A stretch of 63,674 nt of DNA, the filler included, from Platydemus manokwari (taxonomy: Eukaryota): the NCBI GenBank assembly GCA_037951405.1. It is 6 parts of 6 records of this genome, joined end to end, with 100 filler letters (N's around TTAATTAATTAA, not from the genome) between each part and the next. Parts side by side here need not be neighbours in the genome. Positions count along the whole stretch, not along the records: positions 54,413 to 63,674 come from JBBMOY011275873.1; 5 more parts are not named here. One strand, given 5' to 3'. Under the pieces are notes generated by a model. That model was not told the origin of the DNA, did no database searches, and worked only from the letters and a program-made list of their open reading frames with translations. Below, piece after piece: positions 2,816 to 61,982 of this stretch. The position numbers were made by a program, and so were the translations under genes. How positions within the stretch are numbered: the first letter of the stretch is position 1; the number at the start of each line of letters is the position of its first letter.

Positions 2816-2966
2816 CATATAAATCAATTTACGATTACATTTTTAAGAGGAAAGTAAAGTATAAAATAAAGAAATCTTGAAACTTTTCAAAAAGAAAAAT
2901 TCCTTAAAAAGTATATTAAAGTTCTAAAAATTTTAAATTAAAAATGTACACTTTGCTTGTTTTAAT

Positions 2967-3150
2967 TTGACTTAAGAATAATATTTAAAACACATGGCTG
3001 TCTTGATACATATATATATCCAGATAGAATTGCTCTAAAAGTGATTATGATGATTATTATAATTATTATTTCATAATCATTTTAGAGCAATCTACCTGGA
3101 TATATTTAATCAAGAAAGCTTTGTGTTTTGAATACTATGTTGGAGTCCAA
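2967..3150. repeat. Long imperfect inverted repeat (foldback / MITE-like), arms ~90 bp
   Basis: Left arm ...AAAACACATGGCTGTCTTGAT...ATATCCAGATAGAATTGCTCTAAAAGTGATTATG pairs with right arm CATAATCATTTTAGAGCAATCTACCTGGATAT...ATCAAGAAAGCTTTGTGTTTT. Centre at about 3060. Confidence 0.8.
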
Positions 3151-10552: not shown

Positions 10553-11869
10553 TTACATACTTGTTTCATGTAATAATTCAACTTTTAATGCTTTATCTTC
10601 TAGTGGAAAATTATCAATATTTTTATTAGGGGTCATAGTATAATCTTTGACATATTTATTCTCTTCGGTAAAACAAAATGTTTTCATATACTGACTATCA
10701 ATAATGTTAGTGCTTCGAGATTCTATGTTTACCAATCGTTTGAGAGGACCACATTTGCATAAACAACACGATTTATACAATAAACGAATGGCTTCTTGAC
10801 GAAATTTCGGCCCACTCATACAGTAAAGTAAAAAGTGTACAGCAAAATTCAAATACCACAAAGTGTAAAGAAGTCTTTCAATACCGAAAATCAAGCCATT
10901 CAATCTACTCTCAAATTGTAACATGATAGTATTAATGTGAGGTACAAAGAAAAGAATGTTGTATGATAAGAGTGGGGTTGTGGACACCAAAAAAAATATA
11001 TTGACAGATAAGAGCATCTTTGTTAGACTTGTTGTCTGCTTATCTCTTGATCGTCGTCTTGTCGACCTCTTTGCTACTTCAAACGGTATTATTTCTTCAT
11101 CATTTTTGCATTTGACATGCTTTCGGTTGGGAATTTGGGTAATGGCAACTGAATTCGAAATCGTTGCCGCGTTTTGTTTAGTTGATTTCATCCGTTTTCT
11201 TATTCTTTCCATTTCTCGAAGTTTGGAAATTATCAAAATATTCGCTACTGACATTATGATGAATGGCAAACCCATGATCAATGTCAAATCAATATATGGA
11301 AATCCATTTTGGAAATAATTTTTAATATTGCATTTGTTCAAGCCGTTCTCTTGATAAATAAATTCCAATGTCCACACAAAATGAATATCAATCAATATAA
11401 ATACACCAACTAACAAGACAACAACAATTTTGGCAATTTTCCGAGTACAAATCATTTTAGCTCGAAAAGGAAATATGACCCAGATCATACGATCTATAGC
11501 AACCGATACTAGCAACCATACACTGATGTAGGTGAGAGTGTAACGGATGATATTCAACGAATAACAAGATAGTGCATGCTCTTCTCTAACTTTTTTCGGG
11601 AATAAAAACGCAAAATTAAACATCTGCCCCCCAAGACTAAAAATTAAATACAAAATATCGATGAATGCCAAAGCGGTAAGATAGAATGTTGTACTACTGT
11701 TATTCAGTTTCGGTGATACAAGAACAGCAATTGTTAGACAATTTCCAAATAATCCAAAAGTCACGATAATTGCCCACAATCCAATGCACGTTTTACGAAT
11801 TGTGTCAATGGAAGCTGGAAATGAAAATGTGCCATTAAATGTGATATTAGATGGGTATGTTTTGTTCAT
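10553..11869 (-). CDS. Intronless rhodopsin-class (class A) GPCR, FMRFamide/peptide-receptor-like, 438 aa
   Basis: Intact ORF with seven hydrophobic segments: GLFGN (TM1), YLTALAFID (TM2), SVAIDRM (DRY variant), LPFIIM (TM5), FFLVSTTP (TM6), NFAVHFLLYCMSGPKFRQE (TM7/helix 8). N-terminal N-glycosylation sequons NKT, NIT, NGT. Confidence 0.95.
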   Translation of the reverse strand: MNKTYPSNITFNGTFSFPASIDTIRKTCIGLWAIIVTFGLFGNCLTIAVLVSPKLNNSSTTFYLTALAFIDILYLIFSLGGQMFNFAFLFPKKVREEHALSCYSLNIIRYTLTYISVWLLVSVAIDRMIWVIFPFRAKMICTRKIAKIVVVLLVGVFILIDIHFVWTLEFIYQENGLNKCNIKNYFQNGFPYIDLTLIMGLPFIIMSVANILIISKLREMERIRKRMKSTKQNAATISNSVAITQIPNRKHVKCKNDEEIIPFEVAKRSTRRRSRDKQTTSLTKMLLSVNIFFLVSTTPLLSYNILFFVPHINTIMLQFESRLNGLIFGIERLLYTLWYLNFAVHFLLYCMSGPKFRQEAIRLLYKSCCLCKCGPLKRLVNIESRSTNIIDSQYMKTFCFTEENKYVKDYTMTPNKNIDNFPLEDKALKVELLHETSM

Positions 11870-12846
11870 AATGAACGATTGAATCCAAAGTGATCAAAGT
11901 TTCATTATTGGGTGGTATTTTTCTGAATTTCCATTGGATCTATCTGAAATTATACAATCTTAAACTTGGTTAATATAATTTGAGAGAAATGATAATACAA
12001 AACTCGGAACTAATCAATACACAGATCACCAATGATGAAGATTGAAGGAATCTCTATTCATTGGAAAACATTAAGTCAACAAACATTTCAGGATGTGCTT
12101 TCCAATAATCTATGATCGACGAACCAATAGCTAAGTAGGAAGAATGAAAGATGTCGAATCACTATAAAGCGAATGCTTAAAGCTGTATTGATTTTAGTGA
12201 AAATTTCTCCGGGTAACAAAATTTGGAAAATAAATAAATCATAAATGAACTTATTAACTTATTGTTTCTCAATATAAACAATCATCATTTCTATATAGCA
12301 TTCAATTTAAGCACTGCGTGAAACTCATTTTTGTATAATAAAACTTTGTAATAAAACAAATAGATTTGTCATCTTCTCGTTGTTATCTTAGTAAAGAAAG
12401 AATAGATTAAATAAATTTTTAGATGAATATTTTATTAACAAGTGCCAACTCAAGTAAATCTGTCTTGAAAGAAAAGCTTTTAATGGATCATATTGATTTA
12501 TATCAAAATAGGAATCGAATAATCGAATGTAAAATTAAGATAAAAATTTCATTAAAATGTTAAAAATGATAATCATCTATTTTTCAGTTCAGTCATGTGA
12601 AACGGTAAAGCAATTTGATTATTTCTAAATTTATATAATTAATTAATTTCAATCATGACTGAAGCGAAATAAGAAATTGAAAATTAATTTGTCGGTTTCT
12701 TTTTTGCATTGATAATTATTTTGGTTAATTATGTAAAAGCATCCTAACATGTTTTGATCGTTTCATTATCATTACTATTTCATACTTTATTCATTTTTCA
12801 TCATTCTGTATTTATTCAATCTTTAAAATTTTTATTCCTTCAATGA

Positions 12847-12946
12847 NNNNNNNNNNNNNNNNNNNNNNNNNNNNNNNNNNNNNNNNNNNNTTAATTAATT
12901 AANNNNNNNNNNNNNNNNNNNNNNNNNNNNNNNNNNNNNNNNNNNN
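12847..12946. other. Artificial contig linker (N44-TTAATTAATTAA-N44)
   Basis: 100-nt spacer whose core gives stop codons in all six frames. Identical to four others in the window. Confidence 0.97.
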
Positions 12947-14195: not shown

Positions 14196-17100
14196 TCACG
14201 AAATCATTTTAATCAACGCAGCTGATTTATCCTTGATACTGGGGACGCTGTCGTTGCTATAGCACTGGAGAAGTATCTTCAGTTGTTCTTTCATAAGAAT
14301 AAAGATCTCTGAAAGGTAACGGTAACCATAGTTATAATAATAACCAATCGATAACCTTGATTATTCAATAAAATTTCAATTGTATCCAAGCACGATTCTC
14401 TCAATTGTTTATATTTGCTCATTTCGGGAACGCGTTTCCACGATTTCAGCATTGCTTTGAGGCATTTTATAACAGATCCATATTGTTCACCTTCGGGATC
14501 CAACAACTTTCTGGTAGTGACTACCGACATCCTTAACACGGGTTGCAAATTAATTAATATCTCCAATTAATGAAGAGCAGGACATGATGTGGTATTTGTG
14601 GAGGGATTATTTTGCGAAGAAATATTCAAATATAATGATAACATGTGGTAAATGTGAAAGGTATTAGGATGACTGGAAACTTAACTACAAAGGTTCCTTT
14701 GCTTTGGACTTGAATGGCTAGATGAACAAATATTGGATTGGAGGTGGAATATGTGTATAAATAACACGAGATAGGTAATGGGAATGAAATGATTAATGAT
14801 TCATTTACAAATGACTCGAAACATTTAATTGTCATTCATAAGTCATGTTTCCCTATTTACAGGAAAACAGTGGGTTCCTGGAAAACCTTTGATAAGAGAA
14901 TACTAAGGGAGTTTCAAGCTTATAAAATTTTATTCGTATTTTGAAACACAACTTCCCGCATGTACACCACTTATTAATCTCGATGCCCATGGACCTAACC
15001 TTGTGTGATCAGTGGAACACTTGTATTATCAATAATTATTTCAGAGAAATCCCCGTCCCGAATATTGATTGATCAATAATATCAAATTTAATTTCAATAA
15101 CCATAATAATAATGATAATATATTAGCATTGCAGTACCAATCAATTTTAATCATCATGCTCATCATGATGATTGGATAATAAATCAATAATAAAATAATC
15201 AATATTGTGTACAGCTGAAATAATCAAATTGATTAATAATAATATTCCACAGAAAATCAATACAATACGTCATAGAGGGAAATCATTTGATTTGCTAATA
15301 GAAATTACTTTTTGAAAAGAGATTTGAAGCTCTTGAGAACAGCTATCTGCTGTTTCCATTGGCATTCATCCATGGCTTGAGATAACAGCTGTATGACGGT
15401 CACGAAGTGGGATTCTGAATATTAATGATTAACAATTATCTATGCCCGTGTTGTCATGGTAACAAAACCTTGAACATCGTCATAACTCTTTGGCCACATG
15501 TGTCCGACAACTCTCAACAACATTTCGCGCTCGGCAACATTAACTTGAGCTTCACCCTTCACTATAAGGGGCAACATCATGGGGAACAATGACGTCAAAC
15601 ATTCGTTGTCAAGGATATCCGATACCTTAGCAACAGCTTCGAAAGCTACACAGCGATAGGAAGTATCGCTCTTGCCGGTTTCTTTCATGAGAATCTGTAT
15701 CAACTAATAGCATATTCATTAAAATCGATATCGCACGTGGTGGAAATAATAAAATTTACTCGAGCTCGATCCTGAATGATATCAAGAAGTCCATTTTCAT
15801 CAAGTTGGCGCACAAAACTCATTGTAGCGTATAGCAGGTACACTTTTCCCGGCCAGAATTTCACCTGGAATATAAAGAATATCATTATTATTATTCTATC
15901 AGGTACCGTTAATGATGACGTGAAGGGTTATGATTAATCGATATACCTGAGTGAGAAGGGCATTCAAGAGAGCATTATGCAATTGCCCCCACAAACCGGT
16001 CTCTTGATTGGCCCATTGCCTGCCGATTCCTCTAACGAGAGACATCAACGATAAGCAAGCTTGAGTGCGCAAATGATAAAATGAGCTGCCAAGAGCTTCC
16101 GCCACACAAGCCAAAATGTGGGACATCATGCTCGTAATCACTGATCCCTCGGCTCGCACGCATTCCACCCATGTTTGACTCCACAAAGTTCTGCGCTTCT
16201 GGCAATTCTCGGTTTGCAAGGATAACTTTTTCTGCCCAGTCGAACCACTATCGTTGGTTTCAGGCTCATTCTATAGCGAAATAATTGACAATCGATTAAA
16301 ACAAAAATATCAATAAAATCACTTGTTTAGCCAAAAAGATGAGCGGTAAAGTTGTGACTGAATGGAGCTCAAGTGTTCCAGGAGCATATTTCTCGATACA
16401 GTGGTAAACATGACAACAAGCTAACTGATGCTCCTCGGAATCATGATTTTCAAAATACCAAGACCGAGTTATAACAAATAGCTTCTCGACACTCGATTTC
16501 TGAATGATAAAAATAGCTTGCAAGTATTGTCATTATTATGCCAAATATCATCAAAGCCAGCCCAAATATCAATCAAAATATCATCCCAAATATCATCAAT
16601 ATAATTCCAAATATAATCAATATCACCCCAAATATAATAAATATCACCCCAAATATAATAAATATCACCCCAAATATAATCAATATCACCCCAAATATAA
16701 TCAATATCATCCCAAATATAATCAATATCATCCCAAATATAATCAATATCATCACAAATATCATCAATATCATCCCACATATCATCAATATCATCCCACA
16801 TATCATCAATATTATCACAAATATCATCCCAAATATAATCAATATCATAAATAACTAATGGATTAATCAATATCATTCCAAATATAATCAATATCATCCA
16901 AAATATAATCAATATCATCCCAAATATAATCAATGTCATCCCAAATATAATCAATATCATCCCAAATATAATCAATATCACCCAAAATATAATCAATATC
17001 GTCCCAAATATAATCAATATCATTCTAAATATAATCAATATCATCCCAAATATAATCAATATCATCTCAAATATAATCATATCACAAATAATGGATTAAT

Positions 17101-20100
17101 CAATATTATCATCACAAAGATTATACCTTAGAATATTTCACCAGACAACCGATAGCCTTAGCCATTTCCCTCTGGACCACCTCATTTTTATCGAGCACTG
17201 CGTGTAACAAAGCAGCCAATAATTTCCCAGTAGCGCCCATTAATCGCGACCCACAATGTAAACTGAGATCGATGAGAAATTCTGCTGTACCGCATCTGGT
17301 GGCGAGACCGATACCATGGCGAACGATATCTGCCAGAGGAACAAGTAACTGAGCCTGTGTGTCATCCTCGATATAGCGAATACACTGTAAAAAGATGTCA
17401 AGATGAGAATTGTGTTATAATTTCAGGAGATATCGATTACCGATGTCAATATGTCACCAATAGGTGACTGTTTCGCCATATTGACCCGTTGCATGTCCCA
17501 ACGTTCTCGTGAGTCGTGATTGCCCATACCTGCCAGCTGCTGGCTGATATAGCTGCTCTCGCTCGATTCATGGCTACTGAGGGCTTGCAGGCAGGCAATA
17601 ACGATGCTCGGAACGGCACATCTGATTGCTGCACGCCCACTATGCACGATAACGCAAAGTGTGCTGAGAGCAAATTGGTGAACTTGTGGTAAATTGCTAG
17701 GCAGACCATTTTCGAGAAGCACCGGCACAAGACTCGACAACAAAGGCTCTACAGACTGCCGACGAGCTGGATCATCGAGAATGATGGTGCAGAACTGAAA
17801 TTCATCAAATAAATAGCAATCATATCGTTATTGCTGACCTTCTCCACACTCTTGGCAGTCTCGATAGCAGCATCTTTGATTTCAGATCTCGTGTCGTCCA
17901 TAACTCGAACGAGACATCGAACCAACTCGCCAATATCAGCGAGTATGAGTGGATCAGCAGATTCATGTTTAAGAAGTGCTCGAACTGCTCGACAACAAGC
18001 TTCTCGAACCCTGGCTTGATCACTTACTAGACCGTGACGCAATTCAATGATAATCTCCGGAAAGCATTTCCTAACCTAATCACCAATGGCAACCAACAGT
18101 AACCAATCACAGAAAAGATGTTTATAAAATTATTCATACCAATTCCTGATTGGGTGCAATCACACTCAAATTGTTCCATATTTGCTCCATTGCTTTTTGA
18201 GTTCGTGTGTGAGAATCAAATCGATATCGAAACAATTTCGGAACCATATTGGTGATATGGGGTTCCATTTCCTGGCTGTGTTGCATTAACATATGACACA
18301 AACCAATCGATGCCCCTCCACGAGCGGTCCATTTTCTCTGTCCACTAGCCAGTGGCATAAATGAATAAATAAGATCTGGTTGATTCAGTTCGTTTGCCAA
18401 TGAACACAGTTCTTTATATGTGGCTTTGTTAGATCTGTGCACATAACATCAATCACTATATCTGATATCTCGTCATCACTCACTCTCTAGCTTCTATCTC
18501 AGCATCCGTGAATTTCTCATCTTCTGGCAATCCAGTTTCCAATCGTCCTCTACAAAACCAAACAATACAGAAATCATTGAAAAATATTCTTTGTGAAACC
18601 TCTGTCCATGTAAAATGACTTGAATAAGTTCTTCTGACATTAATTTGCGTTCTGTAGAACTGCTCTGTTCATAAATGATGCCAAGAACACACGATGCGGC
18701 ATCTTGAGCGATTTCTGAGGATATAATGATAATCAAGAAACCATGACAACGAGTGATAGATGTCACCTTCTTTATCACCAAGAACAACCAAAATTCGAGA
18801 ATGTAACAAAGGCAGAGAAATGACAGAATGCCAGCCTAATTTTTGAACGAGATACAAGCTCCATACAGCAGCATTGTGTCGACTAATGCTGTTGCCTTGC
18901 GATAATATTTCGTGGATTTTATTCATAACTATTTGAAGATCTTTCGATACAGCTTTTTTGATGGCCGGTATTTTTTGTGTTGGTAAGGAAAACTGACGCT
19001 CATACCATCGACCTTTATAAGGTGAATAAGGTCCCATGATAATACTGACTATTGTTTGAGCTATAGTTTTATGCAATAATGGATCTTTGATCTGCAATTT
19101 TCAGTTAAATAATAGATCAATGATAAACATATGAATTATGATCATGTATTCATTATAGATACCGATATCAATAAATCATATTATTTCGGTTAAACAATTC
19201 CCGTTGATAAGAAGAATAAATAATAATTCTGCTACTTATTTAATAAAAGTTATACATATAAATATATCAGAATTATTAAATCTTTAAATAGCCAAGTATT
19301 TCTCAATGAACACGTGTTTCTCACAATGTTCAGGAATGTTTTCTTCCAATTTTCAAGTTATAAATGAAACACTTATTGCTCCTTGACTTTATTATTGAAA
19401 GGTTTATATGAATCACTACTTCATTGAGATATTATCGGTTTTAAATAGACTGAAAAAGCATTTAGACCAAGTATCACCCAATGAATGATAAAAATAAGCC
19501 ATATCGATTAAGTATCGCCAAATAATGATAATAATAAACTATATTGATCAAGTATCGCCAATTAATGATAATAATAAGCCATATCGATCAAATATCGCCA
19601 AATAATGATAATAATAAGCCATATCGATCAAATATCGCCAATTAATGATAATAATAAGCCATATCGATTAAGTATCGCCAAATAATTATAATAATAAGCC
19701 ATATCGATCAAATATCGCCAAATAATGATAATAATAAGCCATATCGATCAAATATTGCCAAATAATTATAATAATAAGCCATATCGACCAAGTATCACCC
19801 AATAGTTATAATAATGAGATATATCGATTACTTACCGAGTGTGTCTGCATCAGATGCTCCAAAATAGCCTGAGAATGTACAAAATTGTGCTCACCCATGC
19901 AAAGCGCTGATAATGTGTGCAATGCAGCATCCTTCACCTTAATAGGTGTGTTGGCACCTCGTATGAAACTGAATAAGATGATTTTATCAAATGATTCACA
20001 AAATATTTCTGTTACGTAAGACAATATTTGGCAAGGAGTGCCTTATTTGGCCACACAGATGACGCCTCATCGGAGAATTTACCGGCTGGTAAAAATGCGA

Positions 20101-23100
20101 GGGCGCCCGATTGACAGAGACCAGAAATGCAATCCAGAATTATCCTGAGGGTATCCAATAATAATCCATATAATTGTGCTGATTCAGTAGCAGTGCTTGT
20201 CACAGCGAGAACTGGTTCTATAAGCCAAGCAGAAATCATCATTATTCAAATATCACATTTATCGAGTGAGATGAGCACCTATTTTCTGGAGAAATAGCAT
20301 TGATAATTCTTTAGTATCGACTTTTCTTTGCCGTACAACAATTCTCTCGACCAGATATGAAAAACCCAGCGTATTTCCATGATAAGAATAAGATTGGGGA
20401 ATCGATTTCTGCAATGAGAGCTGTTTTGGATTAAGGATTGGAATAGCTTCTAACATGGACTTTAAATTGGCATCAAGGGAGTTATCATCCTCCATTTCCA
20501 GAGCTAGAAGCGCGTGAGCACTAGCACAATTTTCCCTGTTAAACAATTCATCCTGGCAGTCACTGAGCAATAAATTCTAGAAGAAAAGCATGATGAACAC
20601 GTTACAAGCACATGTGTGGTATGCCGCTTTATTAAATTCAATCGGATCGGATACACCGCATTAACTATTACGAGATAAAAGAGATATTTATTACCTTGGT
20701 GCGATGAAGAATAATTCCTTCCTTGGTAGGTAATATCTTAGATGAAGCTGCAATAATTTCCTCGAGGAAATTCATGAAATCTATCGAAGGATGTGTAATT
20801 AACGGTGATGGCAATGAAAGTGAAGGAGTGCACTTACAATTCTTGGTATAATAAATCACTTGAACAAGTTTGCAATACATTTCCAATGCTTTCGATGACG
20901 AGATATCACTTTCAGAATTCTCTTGGGCTGTTTCAAAATATTGTATGTTTCGATATATGCGGTACCGATAATCGTCGACATTGTCATAAACTAATTCTCG
21001 TTTCATCACATCAGTCAAGCCAACATCAAGTGATAAAATGCACATTCGTATGTACTCAACAACCTGTATGGATTTAGGTTAGGATAATAAATAAATATTA
21101 ATAACAAATAAATCGATAATAAAACCATAGGAGAATCATATTTAATGAAGAATGAATGGGTTTAATAGCATTTAATTAACTCAATCCGTTGATGTATTTG
21201 ATATTGATGAGGGGAAGATGTCACAAAATACATCAATTAATAATGTACCGCTTATTGTTGTTGCTGATGTCACCATTTCAACACCCAATATCATCTCAAT
21301 TCAGATATTAAATAACAAGATCGTGTCAATAATAGAAAATCAATTATTATTATTGATATAACTGAAATCAACTCCCCATTACATCATAGCTTTATATCAT
21401 AGGTTTAAAATCGAATAAATTGGTCCAGTGAAAACATTTCTTTCCCAAACTATGATTTTAATTTCTAATAAGCTTAATTTTCATCAATAAAACAATAATT
21501 AAAAATATTTTTTATCCTGTTCAATTCAATTGGCAGAAAATCAATAAAATTTCACAATTGACTCGAATCGAACAAATATGTTCAGAAAGAAAATGAAAAC
21601 CGAAATATTAGTTAATCTCGATAAGTGTATTTTTAAAAAATCGGTTATTTTTCTAATTTTGTAAAAAAAATAAATTAATTATTGATGAAATATTTCATAT
21701 AAATAATTAATTAAATAAATATTTAAAATAATTAATTAACTAATTAAATATTTCAAATAAATAATTAATAAAAAAATAAATATTTCATATAAATAATTAA
21801 ATAAATATTTCAAATAATTAATTAACTAATTAAATATTTCAAATAAATAATTAATTAATTAAATATTTCAAATAAACAATTAATTAAAAAATAAATATTT
21901 CAAATAAATAATTGGTTTTATATTTGAGGTTTCACATTTTGATTTCATATAAGAGGATGCCCTTCAATGATAATCAATAATGAACCGTGATATTACATCA
22001 TATGGAACCATGTAATTATACGGAACAGCCAATGAACATGAAGAGATTATAAACAAAATAACAATTGAATAATAATAACAATAAAAAATTCAATAAAATA
22101 TTGATAAAATGACATCAAATAAACTCACAGGGATCAATTTGACAGGATCTGAGAAGAGATTTCTATTGTAGAGATGTCCATGCTGTGAAGAATAATTAAT
22201 TATTAATATATAATATCCAAATATATTGATATCAATGATAAATCAATATCCAATAATATCCAATCAATGATAAATCAATATCCAATAATATCCAATCAAT
22301 GATAAATCAATATCCAATAATATCTAATCATACATAATTGACGAGATCCACAAAATAAGGCAATTTCACATTTCTCATGACAATGTCGTGTTGTGCCGAT
22401 AACGTGAACAATTCGCTGAATACATGTTCGGCCTCTTCTCGCACAGATTTGCTCCTGGAATAATGTTTAACAATCATCATCACCATCACCATAGTAACAA
22501 TCATACTGGTCTCCCAAAGCTTCTAAAAGTAAGAATCGCGTCGGTATATGAACAGAAGAATAGACCAATCCGGCGAAATACACCACTGCCACTCGACATT
22601 CCTCTTCTTCCTGTAAATAAATGTTGCCATGTCAACCCGACACAAGTAATTGTTGCGATTAAAATTTACCCGGTTAAAATTATGATAAAGAATATTTTCC
22701 AATTTTCCCGATGCTGTCGAATCTTCACCGACATTCTTGTTTTGAAAAATGATGGCAATATTTCTCAGACAATCTTTTACAGCTTCTTTCAGATCTGTAT
22801 CGATATGCTGGAGAAATATGCGAATAATAATCATAATAATAAATCAATTTTGGGCTCACAGGATTACAAAGGGAATCAAATAGTTGAGACAAATAATTCG
22901 TGTCTAATAATAGAAATCGATGATTCCTCTTTAATACTTGTGGAATCAAATTAAGAGCCTTAGTTTTCAGATTGGATTCCTGGATAAATCATTAATTGTT
23001 GTGAATGATCAATTGATAATTAATAAAATGAGACTGACATGTTGATCAAATTGTTTCTGCATGAATGAGATCAGATTCTTTAACAGTAGCTCAGATATTT

Positions 23101-24283: not shown

Positions 24284-24383
24284 NNNNNNNNNNNNNNNNN
24301 NNNNNNNNNNNNNNNNNNNNNNNNNNNTTAATTAATTAANNNNNNNNNNNNNNNNNNNNNNNNNNNNNNNNNNNNNNNNNNNN
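24284..24383. other. Artificial contig linker
   Basis: N44-TTAATTAATTAA-N44. Confidence 0.97.
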
Positions 24384-45347: not shown

Positions 45348-45447
45348 NNNNNNNNNNNNNNNNNNNNNNNNNNNNNNNNNNNNNNNNNNNNTTAATTAAT
45401 TAANNNNNNNNNNNNNNNNNNNNNNNNNNNNNNNNNNNNNNNNNNNN
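45348..45447. other. Artificial contig linker
   Basis: N44-TTAATTAATTAA-N44. Confidence 0.97.
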
Positions 45448-47699
45448 TAATAATAATAATAATAATAATAAATGACGATAAAAATGAAAATAAAATATGA
45501 CAATAATAATTGATTATAAAAAATTATAATAGAAATTATGATAATAATAATAAATGATTATAATTAATGATAAGGATTATAAATTATAAATAATTATTTT
45601 GTGATACATCTAAACTGGTAACGTCTATGAAAAACAGCAAAAAAGTTTCCACCGAATAAAAAAACATTTTCAATCAATTGCGAGATAAACAAATATCCAA
45701 TGAAACAAATCAAGAATAATCCAATTATTGAAATAATTAGTTAAAACATCGACTTGGGTTTTGAGCAGTAATTCTTCAAAGAGATATTTTATGATTTACC
45801 GTATTATTATAAACAAACAGAAATCTGAAATTTTCGTACAATTTTGTCACTATTTTAATAAATAGAAATAGAAATCACTTTTAATGAAAAATTTTGTGGA
45901 AAAAATATGTTTTCTATCGATATGATCACTTCGAATAATCAACAAACAAAAGATCTATGATTATGTTTACAAACATTAAATAAAACAATATAACTCACTT
46001 ATTTATTTTTTTTTTTTACTTTTTTTGAGCATTGAATGCTCGTCAAGAGCTTTTGTGAATTGCTAGAGATATCCGGTAATTATGTTATGCTTTTAAGTAA
46101 ATTGTTATAAATTAGGAAAACATAATCAATATATAAATTTTGGGTACAATTTTATATTTTGTATTAGCATTGGAGAAGATAATCAATAATAGATTGATAA
46201 TAGTACTGTAATAATATTTAAAAAAACAAAAGCTTAAAGAATAAATTTCAAAATTTTACAAATATTTCGCCTTTATATTGGTTTGATCTTCTGAAATCAA
46301 TTATAAAATCTTTTGATTTTCTGATTCTAAATATTATCACAATCGATAAAAAAGTACTTTTCCCCCACATTTATACAATAAGAATTTATAATATTAATCA
46401 TAATCATTAATATATAACTGAAACTACTACTCAGCTGAATTGAGTGGCTGTATTCGCTATCTGAATTCTTTCTAAATGAAGTTAGTTGTGAAGTAAAAAC
46501 ACTAACAACTTTTTTCGGCAAATATATTTGATTTATACCGATTTACAGAAGAACAGTGCCATATAATTCAGAGTTCATAATATTTGTCTCAAGACAATAA
46601 TTTCTTCTGGTCTAAAAAATTGGTTACTGACACCAAATTCATTCCAGGAGCTACTACAGTACATCCTCTTCCCCTATTTTTAAAGCTGACTTTGTTACTG
46701 ACATCGTTCCCATGTGGAGCCTCCATTGGTCTTATTTATATTCTACTTTATACAAGTAAGAGTTATTTTATTTATCATTTTCTTAACCATCCCTAGTTTC
46801 TTTATTACTGTATCGTAGGTCTGTGTTCCTAGAACCAAGTTCCTAGAACTCCTACAACAAAAATGAACAATAGTACCACAGTCCAATGGGGTCACTTTTT
46901 TATCTCATTTCGGATGTCTGAGTATTTTCTATATTTTTTGAGTTGTTTCAGCCAATTAAGCAAGTTCATACACGGGGCATTTTAAATCAATTAGGACGAT
47001 CGTGGATTTTCGATCAATTATTAATTGAAGATCCACCTTAAATTTGAATTCCTTGAATTGGTATTCTTTCTCTACAAAGACTCTATAATCCTATACTCTG
47101 TACTGTTAACAATTTCCTTGAAAAGTATATCCATAGTTCTGGATATACAGATACAAATCGAAATGGGACGATTTTAATTAAATATTTAAAATGGCTGAAA
47201 ATAAAAGATAAACCTTATTATGAATTTTTCAACCGCTTAGTTTGTGAAATAGTTTGGTCACAATTAACATTCGCTAGCTCAATATCATTCAATAAAATAA
47301 CAAAAATATTTTATCAATTGTGACTAGCTTTGATTGATTTTATTGATGGGTAAAGGTTATATTATTTAAAAATCGTAACAACTTTAAGTTGTAGGTATAT
47401 CCAAGATTTTTCATTGGTTGTACATGGTTTTTATTACGTTTGAGTATTAATATTCATTAATATTAATATTTTTATTAAACCAAATGAGATGATATTAACT
47501 AAGTCTGGTTGTATTTCTTTCTCTAATATTTTAAATTTGTGAATATTTATCGTTTAATATTCTCCAAGCACAAATATCAAGTAATATCTCGAAAACAAAC
47601 AAGTTGAATCCTAAAATCATTTCTAAATTATGAGAAACAATTTAAAAGAATTCGATAAAAATGTCTAGAGATAATTATAAAAAAATTCCGAATACAAAC

Positions 47700-47840
47700 C
47701 TTGTAAGGTCTTTCTCCATACGAGAACACCTCCCACAAAGTTATACCATAACTCCATACATCTGATTTGCTATCGAATCGAAAGTAATAAATACATTCTG
47801 GTGCATACCATTTTAAAGGCCATTTTCCAGCAGTTGCAGC
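47700..47840 (-). CDS. Single exon of a SYK/ZAP70-family tyrosine kinase (subdomains VIII-IX)
   Basis: [47 protein letters not shown] contains [12 protein letters not shown], characteristic of SYK/ZAP70. 141-nt phase-0 exon with a CAG acceptor and GT donor. Confidence 0.88.
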
Positions 47841-50800
47841 CTGAATTGATTGAGACAATCATTTTATAATCGAATAAAAACGTTCAGAAACAATGATTAA
47901 AAACTCTTTCGTTGAATCAAATGGTTTTGCGAGGATAAGGCAATCATTTTAAGTTCACTGATTTAACAATACAATTATGAATATTAAATGGGGTTGATCA
48001 ATTCCCCATACCATATACGTTAACAGTGAAATTTTAAATTAAAAATCATCATAAACTTTGATTTAACTAGATAAAATTTGATTACAAAAATATCAAATCA
48101 AAAAATTATAAATTGTAATGATAAAATAAGTTTGTATACTATAAATATCTTCATAGGAAGTATTCCCACAATTTAATTAAAACGATATTACCGTAATTTG
48201 TGACTTTTTATAAGCTTATAATAGTTTATAGAAACTACAGTTCAGAATATAAGCATCAAACTCACAATTTTCTTGTGTTTAATAATAATTATGATTAATA
48301 TATAATTTGTTGTGGAAAGAAACGCATAATTTTTAATTAAAAATTGTTAAAAATTTAGAATAAATTATTATTATTAGGTTTATCACAGAGTTTCTTAGAT
48401 TCATAATGAAAGAAAAAATACCTTAGATAAAAAAATAACAAGGATTACAAGAACAAATAGATGAATTACAAAACCCATGTGAAATTCTTGATGTACAGGA
48501 GATTCGCATGTGAATAATGAATCATAACAGTACGGGCATGAAGGTATGTGTGTTGATTTGCATGCTTATTAACGATTACACAATTGTTTTTATTTTCAGT
48601 TACGATTTTCTATTAAAACCTCCAATGACGTAAATATAATTACGTCATCGACAGTGAGACAATTTATTTAGATACACATAGTTGTTATCATAAATAAAGT
48701 TTTCATTATAATAAATCGTGCTATTAATGCTCACTATATCAGATATAATTAGCGTATAATTATAACATTGTGATCAAAACAAAATATTGTATTTAACAAC
48801 GATAAGCAAAACTAAGTAATGATTATTAAAACGAAATAAGCGAAGTTGAATAATTACAAGTAATTTAATTATTAATCGTACAAGAATAGCCACGACGTGA
48901 TTTGAGTTACGAATTATCTTAACAATGCTCGGGCATCAAGAAAACACAGAAGTAACTTTTTAAACGTAGTTAATTTCATTATGAGTTTAGCTAATTGGAT
49001 TTAGTTGTTTATGTTCGTTCTATAATAAGAAAAATATTCGTTATTAGTTTTTCGTAAATATTATTATTATTATAATTGTTATTATTTACTCGAGTTTTAT
49101 TATTGTTATTCAATGTGAAAAAAACACATGTTGAGTTGCAAAGAATAGCCGGTAATAATCTAGCATTTAATATCACAAATCTTTGACAAAACGAAAGCTG
49201 ATGAATCAAAAGATCCGTCTATCTTATTTTTTTTAACTTCATACCCAAACATCTGGAGATGTTAAATAGAAAGTTCAATGTTTATTTCAATCGGCATTCA
49301 AATGAGTTGATTAAGCAAGATGTTGTTAATATTCTTAATCACAATCAATCGACGATTGTCAACACCAATAGAAACTTTCGACATGAAATTTCAAAACAGA
49401 GGATTAAAAAAGAGTAACTTAATAGAAACTGAGAAAATATAATTATGAAAATTGATTTCACAAAAATCAGTCACTCCAACGGAGGCAAAATAATTAAAAT
49501 TCAAAGAAGAAATTTTAAATAAAATAAAATTTATTTACTAAATAAGTTATTAATATAATTATTAAGTAATTTAATTGTTTGGATTTAACCAGTGAAAATC
49601 ATAATAATTAGAATAATAATATAATTATAGATTGCTGAGATTAAATTTGTAATACTCTTTAAAATAAATTCAATTTAATTAAAACAAATATTTAATTGCA
49701 CATTTATTTTATAATAATCGATTTCAATAAATAATCGATAAAATGAGCTCAAAAAACTGAATTAGATAGACATGAATTGATACATAGTTTTTATTAATTT
49801 ATTTTATATCACAAGGTCGGAACAATGGCGAAATATATCTCGATTTTGACTCCCAAGGCCATTTAATTTTCCCGTAAAAAGCTTTGATTGAATGCAAACC
49901 ACGAATATGCGAATTACAAACATAGCAGTAATCATAACGTAGTCAGATTAATAAATTTATTTATGAGTTTGTATAAAATTTTCAAAATTGAAATTGCCAG
50001 CTTGGCAATAATAAGTACTCTATGTTCTCCATTTCACCTAATTCTGGACTGACTGCAAGTAGAAATCACAGTATAATATATGACTTAATAAAAAGAAACA
50101 AAGAATTAATACGATAAAGTAATTAATTAAAATATAAAATGACTACTAATCTGTTATTCATTTTTTTTACTTTTTCATATAGTTTTTATAAAAAATATCA
50201 TTATTTTATTTTTCGAAAATGTTTAAAATAATAATTATAATCCTCTTCTTAATTAAAATGCTTTTAATTTAAAAAAGATTATCAAATAATTAAATTATTA
50301 TTAAAAGAAAGATGATTATAAGATTTATTTTAAAAGGCTGAAAATCAATTAAATTTTATTATTGACTTCAAAATATTAATTCAGTTCAAAAAGCTCTTCA
50401 AAGTAAGTATAAAGCTGAAGGAAAATTGAAATTTAGTCTTTTGTGCTTAATATTTGTAAATCAGTGAATATGATTGAGTAAGGAGTTTTAATCGGCATTT
50501 TTAAAAAGCTAGAATATTAAAAGCTCATATATACCTACATGATGAATAAACTGCAACTCTGACAATTATTCTTGATAACTTTGGTTATATGGCCAATATT
50601 TAAGACATAGTCATTAATAATTCCCGATTTCAACCCAGATAAAGTTCTAAAATAGCTATAAATCGCTCAAATAATCTCATCGGTCATTGTGGAACGTACA
50701 CAAAATCAAAGGAAAGTAAAAATGTTATATATTTTTTTATTCGATTCACTTCATAAAATAATAAAACAAGATTCATTTTAAATTTTAATGTGAAAATTAT

Positions 50801-54312: not shown

Positions 54313-54412
54313 NNNNNNNNNNNNNNNNNNNNNNNNNNNNNNNNNNNNNNNNNNNNTTAATTAATTAANNNNNNNNNNNNNNNNNNNNNNNNNNNNNNNN
54401 NNNNNNNNNNNN
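54313..54412. other. Artificial contig linker
   Basis: N44-TTAATTAATTAA-N44. Confidence 0.97.
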
Positions 54413-54507
54413 TTAAAAATATATATAACACATGTATATAAAACATCTTCATTTGGTAAAAAAGCAATTGGACAAAATGATGTAGAAAACCGGAAAGAAC
54501 TTTTGGT

Positions 54508-55160
54508 TCACCCTAATATTTGATAAACTATCATTGGTTCTCCCGTGTCACAACTGATTTCATACGCTGTGCAAATTGGATGCGTCATCATTTTCCTGGT
54601 AGGTAAGTCGAACGCTACTTGAAATTTTCTAAGTTGAACTTGATTCTCGCGTTCTACTATTGCATTTTTTATTGTTCGACCCCATATACTGTATAGTCTT
54701 CCGGCACAGTATCCTGATGTTTGTTTCCATCTGACTATATTTCTTTGTTGTCGTATTATCGCTCCTGGTTTTACAATTAATTCTATGCCGTGAATTTTAA
54801 AAATTTTTGTTTGAAATTCATGTTCACATTCTATTGGCGTCACTATAGCTGCTATTGCACTCCATCTTGGCTACAGTTTTTTCGTATATCCTCCATTTTT
54901 TGAACAATAGAATACAAACTCTTGGTATGTAACTATGCACTCTTTTGTCTTTGTTTTTATGAAGTCTCCTTCTTGATATGCATGCAATAATTTCTTCCCT
55001 TCCTGTACCAGGAACACAGGATTTGACTCCGAGCAATCCTCAACATCTAACATAGTTCTGCCCCATTTTTGGCTTTGCGCAGTCAAAGGCTACTAAAGTG
55101 TTGGCCTCTCCATTTATTTCGAAAATGGTCATTTTGACAAGTATCACCTGCATAATGATC
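54508..55160 (-). pseudogene. N-terminal ~215 aa of a chuvirus-like (class III fusion) glycoprotein, env-like; one frameshift (~55062) and one in-frame stop (54871-54873)
   Basis: Reconstruction: IIMQVILVKMTIFEINGEA-NTLVAFDCAKPKMGRTMLDVEDC...ECIVTYQEFVFYCSK...VTPIECEHEFQTKIF...SGYCAGRLYSIWGRTIKNAIVERENQVQL...HPICTAYEISCDTGEPMIVY. Cys order and flanking residues follow the chuvirus glycoprotein pattern (AYDC...LDVxxC; CxxxxxxxxxxCG; GxCxGxxY..G...VxV; CxY...CxD). Confidence 0.7.
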
Positions 55161-56060
55161 GGATTGTCTTTGGCCAATTTTTTAGCTTTCTTTATGGCCT
55201 CTTTTTGTTTGGTTTCTTTCATGATTGGACTGCTCGAGTCGGTTGATGACTCGTCACTTTTTTCTAAAAGAATCTTTTTTAGCGGTGGCTTGCCTTTTAT
55301 TTTTTTGGTTTTTCCATTTAAATTTCCTGGTCGCTATGACTTTCGGCAAAAATCTTTTTTCGTGGTTGTTTGTACGGCACTTTAAATCCTGACTCGTTCC
55401 CCCCAATTAGTGTTCGATTTTCTTATATATCTTTATTATTTGATTATCTCTATCTGTTTGGGCCTTCTCCATTCTTCTTGTTTTTTCGTAATTTTCTCTT
55501 CAAAATTTTTGAATCTTTCATTCCACATGGCCTCATCGTGACCACACTGTGATGGGATATAAGATAGAGATGGCCTGATCTTTGAATCATCATTCATATG
55601 GCTTGTTCCTGCTATCGGCTAAGTGGTTATTGGCTCTGTATTGGTTGCCTCTGGTGATGGTATTTCCCAGCTATATGTGGTCTGAGCATTTGGTTGTTTG
55701 TAGTACTCAGGCATATAGATCGGCCCTTCTAGTGGCTCTCGAACCAATTATTCTCTTTCTCCAGTTGTCGTTGATTGATGAGTTGATCCTATCTTTTAAA
55801 CAGCCTAATGATTGGTTCCACCTGTCGAGCTACCATCTCTGCGGGTTGGCCAATTGTTATTATCTGCGTCACTGGGGCATGTTTGATCAGTGCCAATATG
55901 GCAATTACCTTTTCACAGATACTTTATTTCGGCTGTCCTTTTTTGTTTTCATCATGCTGGTTAATGTCTCTCCATCTTCACTAGTAACACTATAATCTTC
56001 ATCGTTGAGGTCGACTGACCATGTTTTAGTCATAGTTTGAATCTGATATTGTTAGGCAGA

Positions 56061-56606
56061 TTTTCGCCAGATCTGTATTTTATTTGGCCATGGAACAGAA
56101 AAATTATTGATCATTTGTTGTCGTCCTTCTATTTCCTTCCCTTCGTATATGACCTTTATGGTTTTTTCTTCTAATTCTTTAAATGACCATTCAACATGTA
56201 ACCATTTCAACAAACAATCTGTTACTGCTAGTGCGGGCACTTCTGCATGTCTTTCTTGTTCTTCCCCGGTTACATTATTTATTGCAATCATTTGTAACCT
56301 GATTGTCGGGAAAGCATTTTCTGTTATTGGTAATCCATCTGCTTCATCTGGTAATAATTGCACTTCGATAAAATTATCGTGTATTTGCAGCGTGTCTTTG
56401 TCGATCAAATAGTCATAATCCAGTATTTTTCTGCCCTCGTAGGTCATATTAAATGTAGTGCAAATCATTCTCTTTTTCATTAAGGCTTCATAAAACCATT
56501 TCCGCAGTTTTCTTCTAGTAGCACAAGGGTGAAAGTTATGACAACCATTTATTATGTGTTTATTATCCCATTCATAATAATACAAAGCGGTGATCGATAT
56601 TGTTTT
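56061..56606 (-). CDS. Two tandem ubiquitin-like (beta-grasp) domains within the retroelement polyprotein (ORF 56052-56705)
   Basis: Domain 1 FHPCATRRKLRKWF...MTYEGRKILDYDYLID aligns with ubiquitin VEPSDTIENVKAKI...LIFAGKQLEDGRTLSD. Domain 2 reads AEVPALAVTDCLLKWL...IKVIYEGKEIEG. Neither has a C-terminal GG. Confidence 0.6.
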
Positions 56607-57128
56607 ATAGCATTCTTTATGTTGTCTAATAAATTTTCCCATTATTTCATTTACGTCGTGGTACTTATCACTCTGCTCTCCGTATAAATATATGTTATCT
56701 TTCACAACGTTGATGTGGTAAAATATCTCTTATTTCTGCCTCCTTTAGGTCTTGTGTTAATGCATCTGATATAAGATATATAGTTTCATCGATATGAATT
56801 AACATGTCCTTGCCCCTTCTTTATGCTTTGTTTTTGTTTGTCCAATTCTTTGTCAACGAATTCAAATATATCGCTTATCTCTGCTATTGTAAGCTGTATA
56901 GGCTCCTTTTTGTCTTGTGGTATCTGACTCGGTTTCCATTTTAACTTTTCTATTAATAATTCTTGCGTATTTCTATCATCTGTTTTGCAGCATTTATCTC
57001 TTCTTCTGCGGGATGTATTACCTGATCTGCCATCGTTTTAAGATCCATATTTTTTGGTACATGTTTTATCTCTTCTGCTGGAAGTTCTTGCTGTGTCTCT
57101 ATTTTATTTTGATCATTATCCTACTGGT

Positions 57129-58071
57129 TTACGGTTTGCACAAATTTGCGCTCCCCAATGTGGCGTTTTTTATTCTGGCATCATCTAATTCCATTCTCAA
57201 CGTCGCTAACTCCTCATTTTTGGTTACAGATTCTATTCGTTTTGTTTCAGCCTGTTTGATTTTCGTCTCATTTGGTTCATCTTTATACCATTTGGGACAC
57301 GACCTTGCTCGTGGCTCGTATTCACTACAATAATAACATTGGATATGCCCTTCCTGGTTCAACTTGTCTCTCGTGAACCCTGGACTATTAGCTCTATTTC
57401 TAGGATTATACCGTCCAACTTCTCCTGTAAAGGCTTCTCTTTTCCAATTTGCCCCATTATAATTCTTATATGTACCATTATTCATTTCACTTCTTTGCAT
57501 CACTATCATTATTATTACGGTTACAGTCATTTCTCGCCCTTCTCGTCTGGGAATTATCTCTACTGTTCCACTGATAATTGTTTCTCGGTTTTATATTATC
57601 ATTATTGTTCCAATTATGATTGTTTCCTCGTTTTCAATCGCCATTATTTCTCCTAGTTTCCAATTCCCATTATTATTAGACATATTTCTGGCATTTTGTT
57701 CCTTCTGGAATCGCTCTAATAAACTTTTAAAATCTTGTCACTTGAAATCTTGCCTTGAAATCTATTTCTAAATGCCTCGGTATACCTTGCCTGTAAATCT
57801 TCTTCCATAACTATTTCTCGTTTCATCGCCTCTTTAACTCCATTATACGGTAAAGATTGTAACTGGTGGCCTCTTAATAAATTTTTATAAACATCGAATG
57901 CGTATCCTTTTAAATGAAAAGGTAATCTCGCCAGTCTCTGCACGTCATTCCATCCTTAGACTTCTGAAGTTGCTTCATATCCATAAAAAAGTCATTAAAT
58001 TCATCTGCTTTTCCGGAATATATTTCTATAGTTGGTAGTTTAACAACGTTATTTAACCTATTATCTTCCAT
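57129..58071 (-). pseudogene. gag: Retroelement gag: capsid N-terminal part, Asn/Arg-rich spacer and degenerate CCHC zinc knuckle
   Basis: Across frameshifts: MEDN...KLPTIEIYSGKADEFNDFF...GWNDVQRLARLPFHLKGYAFDVY...FRNRFQ, then an N-rich tract, then CYYCSEYEPRARSC (57338-57297; CX2CX4[H>P]X4C). The C-terminal half of the capsid appears deleted near 57720. Confidence 0.82.
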
Positions 58072-58245
58072 ATTATTTCCAGCGTAAATGTTTCTATTTC
58101 TTAACCTATAAATTATTCGATTTTCCAACGCGATTGATTTTAATTAATTAACAACGACTTTTCACAACAATCAATACTTTTATATCACAAACGAATTCGA
58201 ATTTGACGAATTGCACACAGAAATTAATTATATTATTTGACGGTT

Positions 58246-58265
58246 GAGTCCTCACTCGGGCACCA
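58246..58265 (-). promoter_or_regulatory. Primer binding site TGGTGCCCGAGTGAGGACTC
   Basis: Begins TGG (complement of tRNA CCA) 8 nt inside the LTR end. The complement GAGTCCTCACTCGGGCACCA parses as T-loop end, T-stem, acceptor strand, discriminator A and CCA. Confidence 0.8.
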
Positions 58266-58273
58266 AATTTATA

Positions 58274-59239
58274 TGTTGGGTTTTGGTACTTATATGTTTG
58301 TATTCCCAAAACCGGTGAGTTCTTAAGATTGATCTGATTTGAATTCAAATCAACCCTCTCGATTATCAGTATGTTATACTATAAACAATAATACCTAATA
58401 ATACAAATAGTAAATTGGACTATTAATCAATAAATCAAAATGAAGACGGTTTAATAAGAAAATTCCACTATTTAAATCAATATTACAAGATGTTCAAAAT
58501 AATTTACAATTGACAATAATTGATAGATCGGACAAACAAGCAAAATTATTTAATTTACACCAAACTGGATTTTGACTCAAACAAGTTAAGGTTTGGGAGT
58601 GGCCGATTCGAATTTAACGAAACGACCTATATATTAAGATTTTAGACAAATATAGATTTTAAAATATATTATTTCAGTTTCGGCAGCCTCAGAACCTTAG
58701 AATTCACTCCTTCTTGTCGTAATATACAATATTTCCAGCACTTTTGCAAAAGACGTTTATGAGCTTTCTTCTGTTGATTAAACTTCCTTCTTGAGATTAA
58801 AACGGTCGTCGGCAGTTTGCTTCTTTTAAATTTTCAGTTGTTTCTACAAGTTTTCTTTCTGCTTTTAGATTTTCTAAATGTTTGTGTTTAGATATTTGTG
58901 AGCGAAAAATAATGATTTTAGGTGCCTATTTATAGTATTTTAGAATTGGAAAATTCGCTTTAGAATTTTAAAATATTTTTATTTTTCCCAAAAATTTAAT
59001 TCTATTATTTTATTATTTCTATTAAATAAATTCTGTTAATTATAGACTTTTAGAAATTCCAACGAATTAATTTTGGAATTTTTACACATTTCTAAAATTC
59101 TATATAAATTAAATTTAATTTTTTATTATTGTTATTTTGGGAGCGCTATTTATTATTTTTGTTGTCCGATTTATTCTTAAAGTTTATTATCGTTAAAATT
59201 TCCATTATAATAATTGTCATTAAAATATAATTTGTGACA
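58274..59239 (-). repeat. Candidate 5' LTR (~966 bp)
   Basis: Minus strand starts TGTCACAAAT (59239) and ends CCCAACA (58274), giving TGT...ACA termini. Contains a TATAAATAG TATA box (~58926-58934) and is immediately followed by the PBS. The outer boundary is inferred without a second LTR. Confidence 0.65.
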
Positions 59240-59369: not shown

Positions 59370-59697
59370 GAGAATTTAAGATCGTCTTGTTTGTCAAGAT
59401 CCACACTTTTTGCCCACAATCGGGAATTCTCCTCTCTCAGATCTGTTGGGATTATTGACTCCGTCTTAATTGTTTCCTAGAGTTCTCTCAGGCCAACCTT
59501 CTCGGGCTTATTCCAACGATAAACCATTCAATCCCAGTTGCCATCTTGATTGAGCTCAATCCTTTCATTGGCATTTGTGGCTGTTATATTAGATGTGCTT
59601 GGAGCATTGGATGGTATATGATAGGTTGTGCTTGGGGCGTTAGAGGGCATAAGATAAGATGTGCTTGGGACGTTAGAGGCGCTTTCCCAACAATGCC
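59370..59697 (-). pseudogene. Decayed coding fragment with a 33-bp tandem repeat (PSNAPSTxYxx x3)
   Basis: GC-richer island preceded by TTCAG on the minus strand. Reads HCWESASNVPSTSYLMPSNAPSTTYHIPSNAPSTS...NWD*MVYRWNKPEKVGLREL*ETIK with two in-frame stops. Confidence 0.4.
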
Positions 59698-60360
59698 CTG
59701 AATTTATATGTAACTATTGTACATACTATAAATGCAACTGCTGCCTTATCTAAGCACGTATGAATCACTCTATGATTATTATTTGATAAGATGCGTATTA
59801 TTGTGGCAAAGAAATTTTATTACACAATTGTTCTAAAGTTGGAAACTTTTGGAATACCCGATGAAAAATTTATTAACATTTCGGCAGAACATTTTTAAGT
59901 TCTCTTTCTAAATCTTGCAAATTAGGGACGCTATTTTTTCTAAAAGCTTGAACAATTATTTGAAATGGTGAGAATTTTATCTTGAAAATTTATATAGAAT
60001 TGACCTTTTTTATTTTGTCAATATCGGTTGTTTTTTAACAAAGATTACTCGAAGAATAACTAACGTTATGCGATCGAACACTAAGTGATATGATAAATAC
60101 ATCATAGTTTGTTAAATACAAAATTACATCATTTCGAAACCATAGTTTGCAAATCTCATATTCAAATATAAATCACAAATATAAAATAATAAGTTGTATA
60201 ACAATTATTATTTATTAGAAATTAATAAAACATGATTTAACTGCATAGTACAAATAATTTTCTGTATTAAAATCAAGTTAAAACCTTGGTATAAATAGAT
60301 TTAATCGAACAAAAATATTCAATGTTTCGGAAATTAACATCTCCATCATTTTATAGTAAA

Positions 60361-61982
60361 ATGTCAAATCATTTAGAAAATCGATCCCGTTTTGTTTATA
60401 TAATAATTTAATAAAATTTTTAAATGGGTTTTCTAAAAAAAGTTTTCGTTTTCAGTGCTCTAGTTTTAGTTGGATCGATATTTGCTTATCAGTTTTTAAA
60501 TGAACATCAGATTTCTTCAATATCGATGACAACTTTATTTACAATTACGAAAATAGTAAAATAAATTTCTTCCTCTTCATTTTAATTCATTTTTGAGGAT
60601 TTATATTTGAAATCTTACTTTGGCATCAATGGATTCTACCGTGGTTATGAGAAATTTATATCAAACATGATATATAGCAAGGTCAATAGTTCTGGATTAA
60701 AGGTAAAGTGAATAATAAAAATATAAATTTATTATGAGAATGATATGCAGATTGATATACAACACTTCGATGAAGTGGAGGTTTTAATTTTCAGTCCTCT
60801 CAAGTATAAATCAAAACGACCCGCTATCATTCATTTGCATGGAAGCGGCTGGATCTATTTTAGTCCAAGTTTTTTATTTGATTTTTAATAAAATTTGTAA
60901 TAAGAATATTTCTCCGATTGTTAAGAGGTTTATTCACCGTACTTAGCCGATCTATCTCGTCGATTAAACATATTAATTGTATCCATAAAGTGAGAAAAAA
61001 CCAAATCACTGGTTTTTAGATATATTTCTTCATTACAGTTATCGAAAAGCTCCTGAACATCCATTTCCCGCTGGTGTCACAGATGCCATTGTTGCCACTA
61101 AATATTTCATGGAAAATGCTGAAAAATATGATGTGGATCCGAATCGAGTAGCTTTGATGGGTGGATTAAAATGATTTATGAAAATTTTGGTTTATCAATT
61201 TTTGTTATTTGTAGGAGAAAGTGCTGGTGGTAATTTAGTTGTTTGTGTTGGACATCATTTGGCTTCCATGTTGAAGCTTGGTAAAATTATGAGAGCACCT
61301 AAACTTCTAATTCCAATTGTACCAGCATTTCAAATGGTAGATATGAACACACCATCATTGGTTGATGACAGTCGTGATGAAATATTGAAAAAGTCAGAAT
61401 CTTGCTATTATTTCATGATTGATATAATAAACATTTCAGAGAATGGTGTATGAGTATGGTTTGTAATTATGTGTTTGGAGAATTATCGACTACTGAGCTC
61501 CATGAGTGTATGAATGTGGTGTCAACCAACAATCATTTGAGTGAGGTGGTTGTTAAGAAAGTGAGAGACAATGTTGATTGGAAACAATATTTAAGAGGAA
61601 AGTAATAAATTGATGAATTAAATTCGATATTGAGCAATTTAATAGTGATTACGACAATGTTCCGCAGAGTACTTTCAAATTCACAACGAATAAATTTGTA
61701 AAGAGATTCTCTGAATTGGTTCAAGATCCTTTGTTTTCACCCATGTCAGCTCTGAACAACAGTGATCTTGAGATATTACCACCAGTGTATTTGATAGCGG
61801 CTTCAAAAGATCCATTGAGAGATGATGCTAAAATATTGGCAGCAAGATTGGCGAAAATGAAACGAGGAGAGCTGAAAGAATTTAATTATTCTCATGTTGG
61901 TATTTTGAAGCCTGAAAATTTCGAAGAATATTTTGACTATTTGTTTTCGGTATTGAAAAGACAAGGTTTTACCGAAATTTAA
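60361..61982 (+). CDS. Arylacetamide deacetylase / NCEH1-like esterase (hormone-sensitive lipase family alpha/beta hydrolase), multi-exon
   Basis: Spliced exons give an N-terminal hydrophobic anchor, PAIIHLHGSGW (HGGG-type oxyanion motif), NYRKAPEHPFPAG, VDPNRVALMGESAGGNL (catalytic Ser), SPM, DPLRDD (Asp) and YSHVG (His). The first exon and start codon are tentative. Confidence 0.9.

Follow-up and report, generated by a model that had tools for sequence, protein, structure and literature searches.

A probable tandem pair of SUMO-like domains between Gag and Env in a decayed retrotransposon copy of Platydemus manokwari

The segment between Gag and Env of a decayed retrotransposon copy in Platydemus manokwari probably encodes a tandem pair of SUMO-like beta-grasp domains, of the SUMO type rather than the ubiquitin type. 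The copy was found in a window of 63,674 nt, which is the whole stretch of DNA that was analysed, and according to three-frame translation it spans roughly 58090-54508 of the minus strand. That this part of the gag-env-pol element is an internal Gag-to-Env piece whose SUMO-like pair docks host SUMO-pathway proteins is a proposal for which we see the chances as evenly balanced. If the fold assignment is true, the giant Burro elements of planarians are not alone in carrying SUMO-like cargo between Gag and Env, which occurs, doubled, in a compact lineage as well. The lineage has intact published relatives, and the pair would then offer a small, tractable object for probing effects on the host SUMO/ubiquitin system; what the elements do to this system was posed as a question in an earlier study and is left unanswered in its available text (PMC6431247). 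The present copy is decayed and its architecture is not new, so that the surprise for a specialist should be modest.

Results and Discussion

Layout of the element

The sequence is likely a decayed LTR retrotransposon copy of the flatworm gag-env-pol type. Its features, in the order of transcription and with the basis of each reading, are as follows.

58244..58265, minus strand: primer-binding-site-like sequence that begins with TGGTGCCC and lies some 175 nt before the Gag-like start (position)
57716..58090, minus strand: Gag capsid-like region, split over two frames (three-frame translation)
57129..57480, minus strand: Asn/Arg-rich stretch with a degenerate zinc knuckle and a coiled-coil-like tail (reading by eye)
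56052..56729, minus strand: stop-free frame of 225 codons with both units inside (translation, third-position composition)
56349..56606, minus strand: unit 1, probable SUMO-like (beta-grasp) domain (SUMO profile, gap-free register from helix to YEG)
56061..56309, minus strand: unit 2, probable SUMO-like (beta-grasp) domain (SUMO profile, first match in ESM Atlas)
55160..56051, minus strand: Lys/Glu-rich, low-complexity spacer, broken (no protease, RT or integrase motif)
54508..55159, minus strand: signal-like hydrophobic stretch, then the N-terminal portion of a class III Env (PF24664, one internal stop)

The Gag capsid-like region, which we take to resemble a Ty3/gypsy capsid, found no supporting match in Pfam or in a PDB sequence search. 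The primer-binding-site-like sequence is one of four TGGYGCC sites that the window has on its minus strand and is distinguished solely by its position. The zinc knuckle, as read by eye, has the form C-x2-C-x9-C with a residue other than His at the His position, and an acidic, coiled-coil-like region precedes the 225-codon frame. The distance between this frame and Env is about 0.9 kb, and the Gag-to-Env segment as a whole comprises about 2.9 kb or about 980 codons. Upstream of the element, at 59400-59700 of the window, there is a GC-richer stretch with short imperfect repeats.

The presence of a fusogen, already proposed in the initial annotation of this DNA, was borne out by the Pfam search. 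With X in place of its one stop, the Env piece matched PF24664 (Monjiviricetes fusion glycoprotein) with an E-value of 3.5e-8 and 32.3 bits at a cutoff of 27. It is cysteine-rich and of the HSV gB/chuvirus-type class III, the Env class of the flatworm GAG-ENV-POL errantiviruses, and the most hydrophobic 15-mer of the element lies at 55159. No relative of this piece was found among 100 longer candidates, and none in phages. The copy breaks off inside Env at 54508, 95 nt short of the N-linker; the window contains no LTR pair, and Pol and the 3′ LTR are absent from it. The motifs D[TS]G, YxDD and GPF are absent from the three minus-strand frames of 54413-58300, and, as in the flatworm GAG-ENV-POL errantiviruses, no Pol is present between Gag and Env.

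In flatworms, nematodes and bryozoans, Ty3/gypsy elements with env encode an HSV/gB-type Env and are organized in the order GAG-ENV-POL (Chary and Hayashi, PMC13524379). This gene order together with the truncation inside Env would explain the missing Pol. The protease is accordingly expected after Env, so the 225-codon frame does not occupy the expected protease position, and the initial description of the units as standing where a protease would be expected was mistaken. One polyprotein would cover Gag to Env, and by analogy with these relatives Pol would follow Env in intact copies. Troyka was also considered as the family of the element and was dropped, since in the available part of the source no Troyka encodes an envelope (PMC12440569).

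The stop-free frame and its two units

Direct translation of 56705-56052 (minus strand) yields 217 aa without a stop, as initially annotated. These residues are part of the 225-codon frame, which is indeed the longest stop-free frame of the element, the next ones having 153 and 120 codons. The notion of an intact ORF fared less well. The start at 56705 is a GTG within open reading, no ATG occurs before codon 23, and past the stop the same frame is open for a further 48 codons. For these reasons, we regard the frame as a likely inner portion of a longer Gag-to-Env polyprotein segment and hardly as a free-standing gene. A stretch of this length can be expected by chance in a decayed element, P being 0.27-0.85 if 1200 codons carry 22 to 12 breaks (the number of breaks is a rough estimate).

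In its base composition (A 0.41, T 0.25) the frame resembles the rest of the element. The ratio of A to T at third positions is 92:56, compared with 166:95 in three other pieces of the element (p 0.83) and with 282:346 in six presumed host frames (p 1.7e-4; p 0.048 at fourfold sites). Because the composition matches the element and its third-position bias differs from that of the host frames, the frame appears to be native and a recent host insertion, which had been named as one case against the initial reading, is unlikely. A host gene fragment private to this copy might be suspected from the fact that the frame is the longest unbroken stretch of the element and was read in one copy. This explanation we consider very improbable, as the A/T content and third-position bias are those of the element, the latter differing from that of the host frames, the frame lies on the strand of the element, and its length can be accounted for by chance.

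Two units of about 85 aa sharing L-x-K-W and YEG(R/K)xI had been described in this frame, and they were recovered: unit 1 (56606-56349, minus strand) has 86 aa and unit 2 (56309-56061, minus strand) 83 aa, with LRKW/LLKW and YEGRKI/YEGKEI at equal spacing. The units are 26% identical in alignment A1. Their local alignment score was equalled in 15 of 5000 shuffles and the global score in 34 of 5000, and at the DNA level no similarity between them was detected (112 of 500 shuffles). The limits of the units were set after looking, hence their similarity gives modest support for a duplication, and we suggest that the pair arose from an old internal duplication. Translation also confirmed that neither unit ends in GG, so that both lack the C-terminal Gly-Gly of conjugatable ubiquitin or SUMO.

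Profile and fold evidence

Unit 1 had been said to match ubiquitin position for position, a claim that did not hold. The 12-mer concerned shares 4 of 12 identities with viral ubiquitins, which by shuffling is near chance, and in pairwise scores against viral ubiquitins 466 and 254 of 3000 shuffles did as well. A ubiquitin profile of our own was derived from 121 loci fetched by pattern, of which 28 without a full 76-codon frame were dropped and the remaining 93 gave 76 unique sequences. For the two units, 44 and 47 of 1000 shuffles scored as high against this profile; the frame ranked outside the top 6 of the 92 stop-free frames of the window.

The second of the two profiles tried, for SUMO, was picked after looking; it was built from six SUMO proteins, one of seven matches being set aside because it was 99% identical to another. 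Its score was reached by 7 of 2000 shuffles for unit 2, 54 of 2000 for unit 1 and 25 of 2000 for the whole frame, and the frame ranks first among the 92 stop-free frames with a lead of 0.2 bits over the next. Both units are aligned by this profile in a gap-free register which begins at the helix, ends at the Y-(D/E)-G-x-x-I strand and covers 32 columns. The HMM scores are weak (1.7-3.7 bits). In HHalign, 2 of 150 shuffles equalled the score against SUMO, whose probability is only 2.6%, and 11 of 150 equalled that against ubiquitin. The idea of integral, non-conjugatable Ubl domains was therefore kept in modified form: the units are probably of the ubiquitin fold, and SUMO fits them better than ubiquitin.

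A separate line of evidence comes from the ESM Atlas. For the whole frame, ubiquitin and Rad60-SLD clusters were matched at 0.85-0.89, behind an unnamed cluster at 0.90, with a recognition value of 2067, which is under the mark of 2300. For unit 2 alone, the first match was a ubiquitin-family cluster at 0.91, with 162 of 256 features shared, which is under 170.

The structure prediction proposed in the initial annotation, where two beta-grasp folds were expected, gave models of low confidence. AlphaFold reached a pLDDT of 35.8 for the whole frame alone and of 57.0 for unit 1 when unit 2 was given as a second row. In the latter model, residues 1-63 are predicted as strand-strand-helix-strand (pLDDT 60-72 for residues 1-60) and the C-terminal third is unfolded; the helix is basic. 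This predicted order of elements would fit the first two-thirds of a beta-grasp. Foldseek and VIA-align, run with both low-confidence models, had no Ubl among the matches listed, the best Z values being 3.9 and 4.8. As the models are poor (pLDDT 36 and 57), these searches say nothing either way.

Sequence searches gave no homologues. No match to the frame was found in Pfam, no ubiquitin-clan match to either unit, no match to the frame or the units in a PDB sequence search, and no alignment of the frame by BLASTP with the fetched SUMO protein. None of 50 candidates of near length in a word-indexed search, no sequence among 1.84 billion representatives and none in viral contigs proved to be homologous to the frame. 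One sequencing run contains 0.43 of its words, and no RNA run is among the matches listed. A metagenome locus (L001) was dropped as a relative, since the match was by chance and fell in a topoisomerase II-like ORF (1256 aa; 2081-5851, plus strand). This ORF seems to contain an intein in its middle, to judge from its motifs. Another contig, from a giant-virus MAG (L123), carries at 150-422 (plus strand) a complete SUMO gene (PF11976, E 4.6e-20) which ends in TGGK and has 7 matches in the protein collection; it may be viral or a host contamination.

Could the units be something other than ubiquitin-fold domains, such as a different duplicated small alpha/beta domain or a drifting spacer, with a YEG likeness to SUMO that arose by chance? 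The lack of any Pfam, PDB or homologue match would be in line with this, as would the fold searches, whose listed matches contained no Ubl and reached at best a Z of 4.8 to unrelated chains, and the weakness of every profile score. Against it, the ESM Atlas and the SUMO profile, as two separate lines, both indicate a Ubl/SLD, the predicted order of unit 1 fits the first two-thirds of a beta-grasp, and a planarian relative carries PF11976 in the same segment (PMC6431247). We regard this explanation as rather unlikely. Our preference for a pair of SUMO-like beta-grasp domains is thus founded on individually weak lines, namely the SUMO profile and the ESM Atlas, together with the Burro precedent.

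Possible functions of the pair

A role as built-in ubiquitin mimics which recruit ESCRT to Gag and drive budding had been suggested at the outset. The precedent is real in that a fusion of ubiquitin to Gag gives ESCRT-dependent release (PMC2958808), and the element encodes a class III Env as fusogen. Neither PTAP/PSAP nor PPxY was found, nor was YPxL in the frames read as coding; if the element buds, another ESCRT route would therefore be needed, although these late motifs may merely have decayed. Moreover, budding by fused ubiquitin depends on the L8/I44 patch (PMC2958808), whereas at the position equivalent to I44 unit 1 has Thr and only unit 2 has Ile, and ubiquitin is the poorer fit (11 of 150 shuffles vs 2 of 150 for SUMO). 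A budding module is thus poorly supported and, in our estimate, improbable.

The units might also be of the ubiquitin fold and serve a structural purpose, binding the nucleocapsid or RNA of the element itself or spacing the polyprotein. Ubl1 of coronavirus nsp3 is known to bind the N protein. The position of the units shortly downstream of the zinc knuckle in the same segment and the basic predicted helix of unit 1 are compatible with such a function, which we nevertheless hold to be doubtful, since the other cargo of Burro at this place (MATH, BIR, BCL2) is host-directed (PMC6431247).

We rather propose that the SUMO-like pair is directed at host proteins. As can be inferred from Burro, it would be accessory cargo of one long Gag-Env-Pol precursor and would be placed on the cytoplasmic side of the Env signal. 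There, it would present a fixed SUMO-like surface without GG ends for Ubc9 or SIM-bearing host proteins. The docking to the SUMO pathway is the weakest step of this proposal and is suggested by analogy with Rad60, Esc2 and NIP45; Esc2 and NFATC2IP contact Ubc9 via their SUMO-like domains (PMC7891725, PMC11065178).

A more far-reaching idea is that the pair is freed from the polyprotein and serves as a SUMO decoy: by sequestering Ubc9 or SIM-bearing co-repressors, it would weaken the SUMO-dependent silencing by nuclear PIWI and would thus be an anti-piRNA factor of an animal retrotransposon lineage. SUMOylation connects Piwi with heterochromatin in Drosophila (bioRxiv 10.1101/2021.07.27.453956), and in planarians Burro elements are silenced by nuclear SMEDWI-2, in a paper whose available text does not contain the word SUMO (PMC8532177). 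We consider a decoy of this kind quite improbable.

Other features of the window

The window consists of six joined pieces, and neighbours across a linker may not adjoin in the genome. The five linkers are identical (44 N, 12 bases, 44 N) and are located at 12847-12946, 24284-24383, 33403-33502, 45348-45447 and 54313-54412. An ECM29-like HEAT-repeat gene (PF24492) at 14291-21078 (minus strand) lies in a piece with a higher GC content of 0.34-0.39 and is broken by a 21-nt-type tandem repeat at 16469-17130, in which several frames stay open. Ordinary animal genes are represented by an intronless 7TM receptor gene (10553-11893, minus strand), an ankyrin-repeat exon (31732-32073, minus strand), a tyrosine-kinase exon (47628-47858, minus strand) and an alpha/beta hydrolase exon (61617-61982, plus strand). 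An A-rich frame of 246 codons at 36396-37136 (minus strand) has no real Pfam match; we take it to be similar to the N-terminal part of a Polinton-type protein-primed DNA polymerase.

Comparison with known elements and proteins

Among published elements, the planarian Smed_errantivirus_3, one of the flatworm GAG-ENV-POL errantiviruses, resembles the present copy in Env type, in the order of Gag and Env, and in an Env identity of about 48% (around 77 of 160 columns, counted by hand in an alignment by eye). For comparison, only 2 of the 15 Env pairs among the six listed Schmidtea elements exceed 38% and 13 lie below it (supplement of PMC13524379). The motifs KMMTH, SCDTGE, LRKF and YQE occur 2, 1, 3 and 11 times in this supplement, and all four are found together only in the row of Smed_errantivirus_3. 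The span given for this element (CM039680.1:205212057-205226601, minus strand) is 14,544 nt, which would correspond to about 8.5 kb if flanks of 3 kb are included, and fits a Gag-to-Env segment of 2.9 kb. In contrast to it, the present copy is decayed and ends within Env. The Gag-to-Env segment is left unannotated in the available parts of that publication, with neither 'ubiquitin' nor 'SUMO' in the text and no 'ubiquitin' in the supplements (PMC13524379).

Tandem non-conjugatable SUMO-like domains are known from the RENi proteins (Rad60, Esc2, NIP45/NFATC2IP), and the top ESM Atlas clusters consist of 190-aa proteins with PF11976. RENi proteins are encoded by host genome-stability genes and carry the tandem domains at their end, whereas the present pair is embedded in a retrotransposon whose base composition it shares.

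In domain order, there is a likeness to the planarian Burro/GYPSM1 elements, which are giant gypsy elements. Their polyproteins comprise Gag, zinc knuckles, an Smc-like region, MATH, a Ubi2/SUMO-like domain (PF11976) and BCL2, followed by a mononegavirus-like Env that sits between gag and pol without a change of frame, ahead of the protease (Arkhipova and Yushenova 2019, PMC6431247). The copy described here likewise has a Gag-like region, a zinc knuckle, a coiled-coil-like region and the probable SUMO-like units, then Env ahead of where the protease is expected; the position of the units between Gag and Env fits that in Burro, and their SUMO-like identity is only probable. The differences are mainly in size and number. 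ORF1 of Burro runs to about 4,900 aa and includes MATH, BIR, ankyrin and BCL2 domains, compared with about 980 codons from Gag to Env here, and none of these four families was found by Pfam in the 8 pieces of the element scanned; an internal deletion may have shortened the cargo segment in this copy. The Burro text names one Ubi2/SUMO-like motif, whereas two units are present here (PMC6431247). A literature search retrieved neither a tandem pair nor a compact element with a SUMO-like domain, to which the Burro figure, Jurka 2007 and Grohme 2018 may add. A SUMO-like domain between Gag and Env is thus already in print for the planarian Burro elements, and what is new here is its probable occurrence in a compact element and in two units.
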